Shown here one piece after another: positions 27,006 through 56,436 of a stretch of 64,000 nt of DNA. Source of the DNA: Candidatus Parcubacteria bacterium (lineage in GTDB: Bacteria; Patescibacteriota; Minisyncoccia; Phycocordibacterales; JAKFXT01); contig JAIOOV010000004.1 in NCBI GenBank assembly GCA_021414235.1, positions 121,091 through 185,090 of the forward strand. Reading direction: 5' to 3'. Every line of letters begins with the position of its first letter. Positions within the stretch are counted from its first letter, which is position 1. The notes under the pieces are model-generated. The model saw only the letters and a program-made list of their open reading frames with translations, was not told the origin of the DNA and searched no databases. A program made the translations under genes and the position numbers.

Positions 27006-27412
27006 TGGTGGAGATGGGCGGAATTGAACCGCCGTGCAGATGGACCGGTAGCCTGACTCTACAACGCATAGCATCCTTTCTACGGCCGGAGCCGATTTAA
27101 GTGAATGCCTTGAAAGGGGCAAAATAACATTCACCGAGCTTCTTTATGTCGAGAGGGGCTGAAGCTTCTCCTCTCCGAGACTCACGTTATAACACCCTGA
27201 CTCTAGCACAGAGACCTCGCTAGAGAGGACGTCGCTTAGGCTTTCGCGTAAGCGAACGCAAAGTTGTCAGCCGTGAAGTACGGCGAAACGACAGCATTTG
27301 CGCGCGCAACTATTGAGTTTGCACGTATTGGTTTCCAGACAATCAGGAGCGTTCCTGGAATTCTCCGCGTTGCACAGGGGAGCGGCGACACCTGTCGATG
27401 CCTAGCATCCCC
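27006..27412 (-). ncRNA. ssrA: tmRNA (ssrA), ~407 nt
   Basis: 5' end GGGGAUGCUAGGCAUCGACAGG matches the tmRNA consensus GGGGnnG...GGaUUCGACnGG. 3' tRNA-like end GGCGGTTCAATTCCGCCCATCTCCACCA pairs with the 5' acceptor strand. Internal ORF ...GCU GAC AAC UUU GCG UUC GCU UAC GCG AAA GCC UAA gives a tag ending ADNFAFAYAKA*. Confidence 0.8.
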
Positions 27413-29920: not shown

Positions 29921-29963
29921 AACAACGCCCCGCCGGGTTTCTCCGGCGGGGCGTTGTGTTTGT
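29921..29963. terminator. rho-independent terminator (ftsH; possibly bidirectional)
   Basis: aacaacgccccgccgg-gtttct-ccggcggggcgttgtgttt. Confidence 0.8.
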
Positions 29964-30036
29964 GCGCGTGCTTGGACTCGAACCAAGGACCGGTCGTGTA
30001 TAAGACGACTGCTCTAACCAACTGAGCTACACGCGC
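29963..30036 (-). tRNA. tRNA with anticodon UAU (AUA-decoding tRNA-Ile)
   Basis: GCGCGTG-TA-GCTC-AGTTGGTTA-GAGC-A-GTCGT-CTTATAC-ACGAC-CGGTC-CTTGG-TTCGAGT-CCAAG-CACGCGC-A; the anticodon loop CTTATAC puts TAT at positions 34-36. Confidence 0.7.
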
Positions 30037-51714: not shown

Positions 51715-52347
51715 ATGCAGACTGTTCCCCCGATCGACCCGACCTCGGGACTCGAATTTATCTTCTGGGTTCTGATAGATATCCCTCGCCTCATCTATCT
51801 CGAGTGGAGGGCCGGGACGCTATTCTCTCCGGAGAGCCCGGCGGTCTTCTTTGTTGATTTCTATCGCTCTCTCGTTTTCTTCTCCACCATCATTACGCTC
51901 CTGTTTCTGTATGGCTGTATCTACTGTTACGTAAAGCTCTGGAAGTTGGAGGCGGAGAAGGTTTATAAGCTCAAGCATCCAGAGAGCCATGCTGCGCTTG
52001 AAGTGGCTACTCCTCATGAGGAGATCAAAGTGGGTGGTCTTAAGTGGCAGGTGGTAGAGAAGCATATCAACTCCGCTAACCCTGGAGACTGGCGGCTCGC
52101 GGTGCTTGAGGCGGATATACTGCTCGACGACATGGTGCGCGGCTTCGGCTATCCGGGGATAAACCTAGGTGAGAGATTGAAGTCGGCGAGCAAGGCATCC
52201 TTCGCGACGCTCGATCAGGCCTGGGAGGCGCACAAGATCAGAAATGCGATTGCGCATGAGGGCGCAGGCTTTGAGCTCGGGGAGAGGGAAGCGCGTCGTG
52301 TTATCAATCTCTACCGCGCCGTCTTCGAGGAGTTTAATTACATTTAA
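51715..52347 (+). CDS. membrane-anchored protein with C-terminal HEPN-like (Rx4H) domain
   Basis: Two N-terminal TM helices; C-terminal WEAHKIRNAIAHEG matches the HEPN Rx4-6H motif (DUF4145/Swt1-like). Confidence 0.45.
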   Translation: MQTVPPIDPTSGLEFIFWVLIDIPRLIYLEWRAGTLFSPESPAVFFVDFYRSLVFFSTIITLLFLYGCIYCYVKLWKLEAEKVYKLKHPESHAALEVATPHEEIKVGGLKWQVVEKHINSANPGDWRLAVLEADILLDDMVRGFGYPGINLGERLKSASKASFATLDQAWEAHKIRNAIAHEGAGFELGEREARRVINLYRAVFEEFNYI

Positions 52348-52390: not shown

Positions 52391-52394
52391 CTTG

Positions 52395-52420
52395 TTGCGG
52401 GGGTCGGATTTGAACCGACG
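52395..52420 (-). other. tRNA 3'-half-like fragment (T arm plus acceptor 3' strand) without a matching 5' half
   Basis: Minus strand reads ...GTCGG-TTCAAAT-CCGAC-CCCCGCA-A. No complementary 5' acceptor strand, D arm or anticodon arm could be folded from the adjacent ~90 nt. Confidence 0.35.
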
Positions 52421-52793
52421 ACCTCAAGGTTATGCATACCACTACAGTTTTCACTGCGACCCTCGTCTTTGTGGTCTGGACTATACCTTCTTCTCCGGAT
52501 GAGAAGCTTGTCATCTAGTCTCTACACCTTCCTAAGGCTTTTAAGGGCGTTAGGCTTGGCTCGGTATTACCATGTTGCAACGCAACGAAGGCTTCACCGA
52601 ATTTGGCAAGTTTCCACATACCATCGCTGATATGCGAGCCCATACTTGAGCCTTGCGAGCTACCGGGCTGCTCCACCCCGCTGAGGCAGAATAGCATATG
52701 TTATTTCGTTCGCAACCTGTGCACTATTGAATGGTCGATATGTGTTAATATACCTATATAGCTAAACCGCAAGAAAAATCAAAAGCTCTGGAT

Positions 52794-53438
52794 TTGCGCC
52801 GTAAGGGTGTGAGCATAAAGTCGATTGCCAAGTCTCTCAATGTTTCGGTGGGGTCTGTAAGTCTATGGTGCCAGTCCATAAAACTTACGGGCATCCAGAG
52901 AGAAAAATTATACAAATCTCAGGTTGCGGCCGGGCATAGGGGGAGAATGTTGGGTGCAGAGGTAAACCGCCAGAAAAGACTTAAGGCTATCAGTGAGTCT
53001 GATGTGCGGGGAAAGGAAGAAATCGGTAGACTCTCGAAGAGAGATAAGCATTTGCTCGGTATCGGTCTTTATTGGGGCGAAGGAGCTAAATCACGAACTG
53101 ATCCAGCTACCATCAGTAATTCCGATCCAACCCTTGTGCTTTTTGCCATGCGCTGGATGCGTGAGTGTCTCGACGTCGGTATAGAAGAATTCAGACCCTA
53201 CATATACATCTCGCATATCCATAGACATAGAGAGAAAAGAATCCTAAGTTTTTGGTCTGAACTCCTGGGGATTGATATAGAAGTGTTCCATGCAGTATTT
53301 CTCAAGGGGAGGCCTAAGAGGTTTTATGAAAACCACGATTCATATTATGGCGTATGTGCTCTGCGCGTTAGAAGGGGGACAAGGCTTAAGTATCGGATTC
53401 TAGGTCTTATTGGAGCATGTAAAGACGCGATGGAGTAA
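52794..53438 (+). CDS. HTH-containing protein with LAGLIDADG-like motif (possible free-standing homing-endonuclease relic); TTG start
   Basis: In-frame HTH ...ALDLRRKGVSIKSIAKSLNVSVGSVSLW. IGLYWGEG matches the xGLhxG[DE]G LAGLIDADG pattern. Lies in a low-GC patch. Only a TTG is available as start, and the frame is open upstream to 52749 with no ATG. Confidence 0.4.
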   Translation: MRRKGVSIKSIAKSLNVSVGSVSLWCQSIKLTGIQREKLYKSQVAAGHRGRMLGAEVNRQKRLKAISESDVRGKEEIGRLSKRDKHLLGIGLYWGEGAKSRTDPATISNSDPTLVLFAMRWMRECLDVGIEEFRPYIYISHIHRHREKRILSFWSELLGIDIEVFHAVFLKGRPKRFYENHDSYYGVCALRVRRGTRLKYRILGLIGACKDAME

Positions 53439-55254: not shown

Positions 55255-55326
55255 GCCGGTGTAGTTCAACGGTTAGAACGAGGGACTCATAAGCCCTAAA
55301 CAGTGGTTCGACTCCACTCTCCGGCA
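55255..55326 (+). tRNA. tRNA-Met/Ile2 (anticodon CAU)
   Basis: GCCGGTG-TA-GTTC-AACGGTTA-GAAC-G-AGGGA-CTCATAA-GCCCT-AAACA-GTGGT-TCGACTC-CACTC-TCCGGC-A; acceptor pair 6:67 is a T:T mismatch. Confidence 0.6.
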
Positions 55327-55369
55327 CTCGTTGAAAAAAAGACCTGTTTAGGGTAAGTTAATTGGCGTT

Positions 55370-55647
55370 GCGGTCGTAGCTCAACTGGTTAGAGCACTCG
55401 CCTGTAGACGTGCAGCTTTCTGTCGAAATGGCAGATTGAAACTCTCTGGGATAACGGTGAAGGCTAAGTCTTGGTTAGCAAGATATGCGAATACCGTGGG
55501 AACCCCACACTGGGTGGGGGCGCCGTAGAGACTAGATACCGGAGCACCTAAACGTGAAAACGCACGGTGAAGATATAGTCCATGCCATTATGAAAATAGT
55601 GGGTTAGTGCACGCGAGAGGTTGCCGGTTCAAGTCCGGTCGACCGCG
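55370..55647 (+). tRNA. tRNA-Asp (anticodon GUC) interrupted by a group I intron in the anticodon loop (exons 55370..55405 and 55610..55647)
   Basis: Exon 1: GCGGTCG-TA-GCTC-AACTGGTTA-GAGC-A-CTCGC-CTGT. Exon 2: CAC-GCGAG-AGGTT-GCCGG-TTCAAGT-CCGGT-CGACCGC-G. Spliced loop is CTGTCAC (the E. coli tRNA-Asp loop). Confidence 0.7.
55406..55609 (+). ncRNA. group I intron (204 nt) in tRNA-Asp anticodon loop
   Basis: Conserved group I core elements R (GTAGAGACTAGA) and S (AAGATATAGTCC) are present. P1 pairs exon CUGU with intron GCAG with U·G at the 5' splice site. P10 pairs 3' exon CACG with intron CGUG. The intron ends in G; its length matches the Azoarcus-type tRNA introns. Confidence 0.7.
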
Positions 55648-55654
55648 CATCAAG

Positions 55655-55688
55655 AAAAAAGAGTCTGGGCATTCCAGACTCTTTTTTC
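55655..55688 (+). terminator. rho-independent terminator after tRNA cluster
   Basis: aaaaaagagtctgg-gcattc-ccagactctttttt. A second hairpin at 55697..55726 (gccgaccgcg-ggat-gcgcggtcggc) likely terminates the convergent minus-strand gene. Confidence 0.8.
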
Positions 55689-55737
55689 TGTAAAAGAAAA
55701 GCCGACCGCGGGATGCGCGGTCGGCAGCTGAGCTCGG

Positions 55738-56436
55738 CTATCGAATAGAGTTCTTGATCTCGTCTGCGATCTTCTGGAGTGCGGCGAGATTGAGGTCCTT
55801 GACCTTCTCGTGAGCATAGAACCGCTTGAGGCGGCTCGTTTCTGAGAGGGGGATGGTGACCCCCTTCTCGGTTACGTGTGCCTCGAGCTTAAAGTTCTTC
55901 TCGGAAGATTCCAGCGTGAAGGTCACGCCGTTTTCACCCTCAAGTTTGCACTTGCCCTCGGTGGGGTCTAGAAGCTTTCCTGTGAGGAGGGTTGAAATTC
56001 CGTCAGAATTGTATTTCCTTTGGAATTCCTTGAGGGAATTTCCAACACTCGCAGCTGAGCCGTCCCACGAATAGCCGCGCTTCGGAGAACCTGAGTCCTC
56101 TTTCGGCGCGAGATCCTCTGGCCTGGCTATCGTGGTTGTTGCCGGTGATTCGGCGATCTTGTCCGCCACGTTCTTCACTGGCTTTTTCTGAGCCGGAGGA
56201 GTGGGAGGAAGCGATGCCGCTGGAAGGTCGCGCGTCGAAGGCGAGGTTTCAAGTTCCAGCTCTTCATCGTCGTTCTCACCGAAGGCGAGAGATAGTACGA
56301 GGAAGGTCAGGATAGCGACGATGACGGCGATGCACATCCATATCGCAGCATGTGCCGAACCCCCAGGCCAGGGACTTAGAAAGTACCCCACGGCTCCGAT
56401 CAGGAATCCGAAGAGTAGAAAGAGCACATAGATCAT
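55738..56436 (-). CDS. hypothetical membrane-anchored protein
   Basis: Two N-terminal TM helices, an acidic/Pro-rich linker, C-terminal globular domain; no recognised family. Confidence 0.4.
   Translation of the reverse strand: MIYVLFLLFGFLIGAVGYFLSPWPGGSAHAAIWMCIAVIVAILTFLVLSLAFGENDDEELELETSPSTRDLPAASLPPTPPAQKKPVKNVADKIAESPATTTIARPEDLAPKEDSGSPKRGYSWDGSAASVGNSLKEFQRKYNSDGISTLLTGKLLDPTEGKCKLEGENGVTFTLESSEKNFKLEAHVTEKGVTIPLSETSRLKRFYAHEKVKDLNLAALQKIADEIKNSIR

Follow-up and report, generated by a model that had tools for sequence, protein, structure and literature searches.

Group I introns of bacterial tRNA genes are classically found in four settings, tRNA-Leu at 34/35, tRNA-fMet at 33/34, tRNA-Ile2 at 36/37 and tRNA-Arg at 36/37, and the intron in tRNA-Ile(CAU) of Azoarcus sp. 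BH72 is the archetypal small ribozyme of subgroup IC3. The tFind survey, which reports no experiments, raised the number of intron and tRNA combinations from the four classical ones to 21 (Williams 2020, 10.1101/2020.01.27.920355); among them, as quoted in PMC13011429, are 'Ug' types at position 4 (35/36), for instance Asn.4Ug. The closest described systems are the group I introns inserted at 35/36 of tRNA-Asp(GUC) and tRNA-Asn(GUU) in Patescibacteria (Nakagawa, Amikura, Omae, Suzuki; bioRxiv 2025, 10.1101/2025.07.03.662931; mSystems 2026, PMC13011429). In that work, the tRNA-Asp precursor from GCA_001029755.1 (Microgenomatia) self-spliced precisely in vitro in a GTP-dependent manner, a mutant with the terminal G changed to C served as the control, and the sequence of the ligated product placed the site at 35/36 (PMC13011429). 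Three tRNA-Asp cases were found in complete genomes, and covariance-model typing assigned 25 of 28 introns at 35/36 to subgroup IA and none in Patescibacteria to IC (PMC13011429).

Here we describe a further copy, located at 55370-55647 in a 64,000-nt stretch of DNA (the window). We estimate at roughly 92% the probability that the locus is a 204-nt self-splicing group I intron between U35 and C36 of tRNA-Asp(GUC) on a Patescibacteria (Paceibacteria-like) chromosome, where catalysis by the window copy is extrapolated from its homologs. The initial annotation knew of no group I intron in tRNA-Asp; that novelty falls away with the tRNA-Asp and tRNA-Asn introns at 35/36 described, together with their splicing, in PMC13011429. 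Its central proposal, that a small, ORF-less group I intron interrupts tRNA-Asp(GUC), held in every test that was run.

Results

An intron inside the anticodon of tRNA-Asp(GUC)

The 5' exon, comprising tRNA positions 1-35, lies at 55370..55405 on the plus strand and ends in C32 U33 G34 U35. The intron follows at 55406..55609 (+), is 204 nt long, has no ORF and is supported by RF00028, ARAGORN with introns allowed (-i) and covariation. The 3' exon (55610..55647, +) runs from C36 to discriminator G73, with CCA unencoded. When 55370-55405 is joined to 55610-55647, ARAGORN folds the ligated exons into a canonical tRNA-Asp(GUC) cloverleaf with the anticodon loop CUGUCAC, and the product carries the Asp identity marks G73, C38, G10 and G3-C70. 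With default settings, ARAGORN reports nine tRNA and tmRNA genes in the whole window and none at 55370-55647; with -i, it returns tRNA-Asp(gtc), i(37,204), with the intron at exactly 55406-55609. The 204-nt removal that had been proposed as leaving a clean cloverleaf is thus exact to the nucleotide.

The ligated exons have natural counterparts. A metagenome scan yielded two uninterrupted genes (L169 and L239) identical to them at 74 of 74 positions, and five further uninterrupted tRNA genes that are 1 nt off. The exon end CCUGU is common to all 72 family members from which the intron was extracted, one of which, L001, duplicates the window.

A tRNA-Met(CAT) gene (55255..55327, +) precedes it by 42 nt in the same orientation and probably shares a transcript with tRNA-Asp. 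Just 3' of the tRNA-Asp gene, a hairpin followed by a T-run can be read from the sequence (55653..55689, +) and is probably a terminator; a simple terminator scan does not report it because the A/T ends lengthen the stem. It stands back-to-back with another hairpin at 55701-55725, with A/T runs alongside, in the space that separates the tRNA-Asp gene from the ORF 55738-56436, which converges on it, and the two hairpins look like terminators of two converging transcription units.

The intron has a complete group I fold

A plain MAFFT alignment (A1) of 71 sequences served to draw helices P1 to P9, including the P3/P7 pseudoknot; all coordinates below are on the plus strand. In P1 (55402..55415), exon bases CUGU (C55402-U55405) pair with GCAG (55412-55415), and the helix is extended by A55406-U55411. 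The wobble U55405·G55412 marks the 5' splice site, as the initial annotation had it, and U·G is found there in 71/71 aligned sequences, with the extension pair varying between A-U (59), C-G (10) and G-C (1). P2 is a hairpin (55420..55434; 55420-55424 with 55430-55434) that appears in the MFE fold and shows compensatory changes at all five pairs; its loop is GAAAU in the window vs a GAAA tetraloop in most relatives. The 5' strand of P3 (CUCUGG, 55444..55449) pairs with 55539-55544, with compensatory changes at 5/6 pairs and 99.8% of cells paired.

The P4-P5 arm (55454..55497) is supported by covariation and the MFE fold. P4 (55454-55458 with 55493-55497) has a closing pair that is U-A in 48 and A-U in 23 sequences. 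P5 contains a motif of the 11-nt GAAA-tetraloop receptor type, GCUAAG (55463-55468) with UAUGC (55484-55488), read from the sequence, and a distal stem predicted by the MFE fold (55468-55473 with 55479-55484); a P5 pair changes from G-C to C-G in 2 sequences. P6 (55499-55500 with 55523-55524) and P6a (55503-55508 with 55514-55519), which together span 55499..55524, are found in the MFE fold, and P6a shows compensatory changes at 4/6 pairs.

The catalytic core begins with J6/7, the 5' strand of P7 (GACUA, 55530-55534), J7/3 and the 3' strand of P3 (CCGGAG, 55539-55544), all within 55525..55544 and identified from the sequence, RF00028 and, for P3, covariation. The R element, GTAGAGACTAGA, occupies 55525-55536, and the S element, AAGATATAGTCC, consisting of J8/7 and the 3' strand of P7 (UAGUC, 55576-55580), occupies 55570..55581; both were recognized from the sequence and RF00028, which bears out the earlier identification of R and S. 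Between them, P8 (55545..55569; 55545-55548 with 55566-55569) has a receptor-like CCUAA / ACGG internal loop and is capped by P8a (55552-55555 with 55560-55563), whose loop is GAAA and whose stem contains a single A·C mismatch; two pairs of P8 and three of P8a show compensatory changes. At the 3' end (55582..55609), A55582 and U55583 form P9.0 with G55607 and U55608, which holds the terminal G55609 in place, in line with the claim that the intron ends in G. The P9 hairpin (55585-55591 with 55596-55602, GAAA loop 55592-55595) has compensatory changes at 5/7 pairs.

The MFE fold of the window RNA independently gives P1, P2, P3, P4, P5, P6, P8 and P9 together with the anticodon stem of the exons, and 51 of the 52 modelled pairs are standard in the window copy, the exception being the A·C in P8a. 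A complete small group I fold can therefore be drawn, with the P3-P7-P8 and P4-P6 stacks and strong covariation; lack of a foldable P3-P7 core had been named in advance as an observation that would speak against a group I intron. P5abc is absent, as are P7.1 and P7.2, since the 3' strand of P3 abuts P8. The one structural claim that did not hold is P10: the pairing with the 3' exon is marginal, amounting at best to three non-contiguous base pairs (A55611-G55613 with C55409-U55411), and it lies outside the covariation evidence, as the 3' exon was fixed by the search pattern.

Covariation and similarity to Rfam RF00028

Across A1, 94.7% of 3671 pair cells hold standard pairs, compared with 36-44% in a control in which the partners were slid by 1-3 columns. 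Changes on both sides occur at 27/52 pairs, and none of 500 shuffles matched the observed values. The covarying helices are P2, P3, P6a, P8, P8a and P9; P7 and the first bases of the 3' exon are invariant because the search pattern demanded them, so that no support was counted from these positions. Taken with the recurrence of the arrangement in at least 70 other species (see below), this strong covariation implies that the intron is more than a chance assembly of motifs.

The covariance-model search proposed in the initial annotation gave a mixed answer. RF00028 matches 55394-55602 over the full model with E = 1.7e-7 in a focused 421-nt search, a significant group I match; its score, 35.3 bits, falls under the gathering score of 50, which is why a default whole-window Rfam scan is without RF00028 at the locus. 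When the model was run on the loci of 12 relatives (E <= 0.001), it reported nine of the Asp introns, at 29.9-54.6 bits, and passed over three. The gathering threshold cuts through the tRNA-Asp intron family, and the window copy, at 35.3 bits, lies within the range of its relatives; because the scores straddle the cut-off, tRNA-Asp introns at 35/36 escape annotation pipelines.

The splice site is at 35/36

A splice two bases further 5', with the intron at 55404-55607 between positions 33 and 34, would turn the gene into tRNA-Ala(UGC). The U55403 / G55607 splice also produces a cloverleaf, named tRNA-Ala(tgc) by ARAGORN, and this choice too has a U at position -1 and a G at the intron end. For some homologs, ARAGORN and tFind both name the gene Ala(UGC) with an intron at 33/34 (PMC13011429 Table 1). 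The geometry of the intron argues for the other register. In P1, U55403 forms a Watson-Crick pair with A55414, and it is U55405 that makes the invariant wobble. In 18 of the 72 extracted introns (L001 included), a splice at 33/34 is impossible because the base two before the intron end, the would-be terminal G, is an A. That base is instead the partner in P9.0, covarying with J7/9: across 71 sequences the pair is C-G in 47, U-A in 15 and U·G in 6. The tRNA itself points the same way. A G3·U70 pair defines tRNA-Ala, and the acceptor stem here has G3-C70, with the Asp discriminator G73 in place of A73; the uninterrupted genes L169 and L239 are identical to the Asp-type ligation product. The sequenced spliced product of the homolog likewise corresponds to 35/36 (PMC13011429). 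We regard the tRNA-Ala reading as extremely improbable, and it was rejected on the acceptor pair, the discriminator, the P1 wobble, the P9.0 covariation and the uninterrupted Asp genes. Insertion inside the anticodon, between positions 35 and 36, as originally suggested, is the placement on which ARAGORN -i, the uninterrupted genes and P9.0 agree.

Proposed splicing mechanism

By analogy with characterized group I introns, splicing of the tRNA-Asp precursor would proceed in two steps. The precursor probably shares a transcript with the tRNA-Met gene ahead of it, and the intron would fold into P1-P9. Exogenous guanosine would then attack after U55405, at the site that the P1 wobble U55405·G55412 sets. 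Next, P9.0 would place the terminal G55609 so that it enters the G-site of P7, and U35, with its 3'-OH now free, would attack after G55609, ligating the exons and forming the GUC anticodon. The GAAA-type loops L2 and L9 probably dock in the receptor motifs of P8 and P5, respectively, as in the Azoarcus ribozyme.

Natural group I introns in many cases require protein help, and the window intron could be a real intron that splices inefficiently on its own, depends on a protein or chaperone in vivo, and may gate the supply of tRNA-Asp. The weak P10 and the frequency of protein help among natural group I introns would fit this reading. A regulatory role for the introns has been raised as a speculation (PMC13011429). 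The homolog, in comparison, self-splices in vitro with GTP alone (PMC13011429), and the window copy has a compact, complete fold with two loop-receptor candidates. The intron itself has no ORF and the ORFs at 52794-53438, 51715-52347 and 55738-56436 have no Pfam match, so these neighbours provide no candidate maturase or homing endonuclease. We consider protein dependence or gating improbable, at about one chance in twenty or so, and retain autonomous self-splicing as the preferred reading.

Distribution among relatives

Species-representative genomes were scanned with core and 3'-exon motifs, which gave at least 120 loci, and these were tested by brute-force splicing and ARAGORN. A tRNA-Asp(GUC) gene with an intron of 194-250 nt at 35/36 was found in at least 70 other species (70 among the 120 loci listed), so the comparison with related tRNA-Asp loci suggested in the initial annotation recovers the same split gene. 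Most of the matches listed are Patescibacteria MAGs, alongside several that lack a classification and one under the name Azotimanducaceae, the labels being those of the records. Groups represented among the matches listed include Kaiser-, Nomura-, Zambryski-, Taylor-, Vogel-, Adler- and Doudnabacteria, Paceibacterota and Saccharibacteria. One Patescibacteria contig that bears a tRNA-Asp intron also contains a strong group I intron match of 73 bits (L012:959-1176, +).

The window is syntenic with a contig labelled Candidatus Paceibacterota bacterium (L004) at ~76% nucleotide identity. At the orthologous locus, the L004 intron is 91-92% identical to that of the window (L004:888-1113 vs window 55396-55619), compared with ~76% for the flanking genes, which indicates purifying selection on the intron.

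This conservation bears on the question of whether the locus is a decayed relic, that is, an inactive intron disrupting a pseudo-tRNA, with Asp codons decoded by a gene outside the window. The sub-gathering Rfam score (35.3 vs 50) and the A·C mismatch in P8a could be taken as signs of decay, and other tRNA-Asp genes elsewhere in the genome are conceivable, as the evidence spans the 64-kb window. Against decay, all but one of the 52 modelled pairs are standard and the core agrees with the family at every position, although the invariant columns of A1 match the window by construction, the window being one of its rows. The RF00028 score is inside the family range of 29.9-54.6 bits, and the intron of L004 has remained far closer to that of the window than have the genes around it. 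Furthermore, intron-bearing and intron-less copies for one anticodon are seldom found together (PMC13011429). A relic is therefore very improbable, and we continue to treat the locus as a probably functional intron in a probably functional tRNA-Asp gene.

A second group I intron and other RNA genes of the window

Another group I intron of the window, at 52435-52648 (minus), is 214 nt long and matches RF00028 at 63.6 bits, above gathering. It splits an initiator-like tRNA-Met(CAT) gene (52394-52682, minus), 2.7 kb upstream of tRNA-Asp, between positions 33 and 34. The spliced tRNA has an A1xA72 mismatch; the gene is missed by default ARAGORN and miscalled Leu(caa) with -i. L004, which contains the Asp intron, has the same tRNA-fMet intron (69.8 bits). 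Over aligned columns, the Asp and fMet introns of the window share 76% identity. The classical, cyanobacterial-type intron at 33/34 of tRNA-fMet(CAU) resembles the Asp intron in its anticodon-loop site, its length of ~210 nt and its core segments, and differs from it in the tRNA and the site; the fMet copy of the window, unlike the Asp copy, passes Rfam gathering.

The intron-bearing tRNA-fMet gene adjoins an ORF of 214 aa with a helix-turn-helix-like N-terminus (52794-53438, +). This ORF has no Pfam match and thus nothing pointing to a homing endonuclease; at the same position in L001, a Logan copy, a shorter gene of 163 aa is called. The contig of the window is also present in Logan SRR15633504. 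Elsewhere in the window, a one-piece tmRNA at 27006-27412 (minus) encodes a long, 28-residue tag, ANSIVARANAVVSPYFTADNFAFAYAKA, and a tRNA-Ile with the anticodon TAT, uncommon in bacteria, is found at 29962-30036 (minus).

Intron and exon histories

In L004, the intron has changed less than its host tRNA: with the introns 91-92% identical, the tRNA-Asp exons differ from those of the window by 12 substitutions and 2 indels, i.e. at 14 of 74 positions. Across 71 species, intron identity is 0.75 within exon types and 0.74 between them. Introns and exons may thus have separate histories, with introns moving between tRNA-Asp genes or the intron staying in place while the exons around it are exchanged or remodelled, a proposal that we put forward tentatively and consider unlikely.

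A non-canonical T-loop, GUCAGCA, is present in 14 of 71 intron-bearing tRNA-Asp genes (L004, L006, L008, L012, L030, L047, L055, L063, L068, L073, L102, L118, L120 and L121). It has neither U54 nor A58, with G-U-C in place of T-Psi-C, and the D-loop is also shortened. ARAGORN still names these genes tRNA-Asp.

Discussion

Relation to the published tRNA-Asp introns

The window intron shares with those of Nakagawa et al. the host tRNA, the insertion site, U(-1), the terminal G, the lack of a homing endonuclease, the phylum and even the Ala(UGC) 33/34 mis-call by annotation tools; what sets it apart is that it comes from another genome. Over aligned columns, it is 89% identical to the tRNA-Asp 35/36 intron of GCA_023898525.1 (Paceibacteria; Table S3), 82% to the tRNA-Asn intron of GCA_030583765.1 (Paceibacteria) and 68% to the validated tRNA-Asp intron of GCA_001029755.1 (Microgenomatia). 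The difference from the GCA_023898525.1 intron lies mainly in the P6 and P8 loops, which are smaller in the window copy and make it shorter than the published one (204 vs 256 nt). Like the window, GCA_001029755.1 combines an Asp intron at 35/36 with a Met(CAU) intron at 33/34. The window intron is one more member of a family already published and validated by experiment. Its exons, fold, covariation, splice-site choice and homology to published members identify it as such, and the in vitro activity of the 68%-identical homolog from another genome suggests that it would be catalytically active as well.

Likeness to the Azoarcus ribozyme

The architecture of the window intron looks Azoarcus/IC3-like, whereas the published typing of Patescibacteria introns is IA. 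Direct reading and the fold give IC3-style helices and motifs, with P2 present and P5abc, P7.1 and P7.2 missing. The Azoarcus intron is alike in its size of ~200 nt, in having P2 and no P5abc, in a 3' strand of P3 that abuts P8 without P7.1 or P7.2, in GAAA-type L2 and L9 loops and in 11-nt-type receptor motifs in P5 and P8. These parallels suggest L9-P5 and L2-P8 docking of the kind seen in the Azoarcus ribozyme. The segment GUAGAGACUAGA is presumably near-identical in the two introns, which we take as a lead. The two differ in host and site, Ile(CAU) 36/37 in Azoarcus vs Asp(GUC) 35/36 here, and in phylum, and tRNA-Asp at 35/36 is none of the four classical settings. By covariance-model typing, the Patescibacteria introns belong to IA and not IC (PMC13011429). 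The subgroup IC3 named in the initial annotation is accordingly not established, for all the Azoarcus-like architecture.

Implications for Patescibacteria

What is new here is the breadth of the family: at least 70 species with the tRNA-Asp 35/36 intron, compared with three cases in complete genomes (PMC13011429). As a small and well-covarying ribozyme, the window intron may be a convenient model RNA, yet it represents no new class. If introns and exons did have separate histories, the movement of introns without homing endonucleases between tRNA-Asp genes would run contrary to the published view of limited transfer. The main importance of the finding is for annotation. Default ARAGORN and the Rfam gathering threshold miss or mis-name the gene, and genomes therefore seem to be without tRNA-Asp or to have an extra tRNA-Ala, an apparent loss or gain that skews completeness estimates for Patescibacteria.
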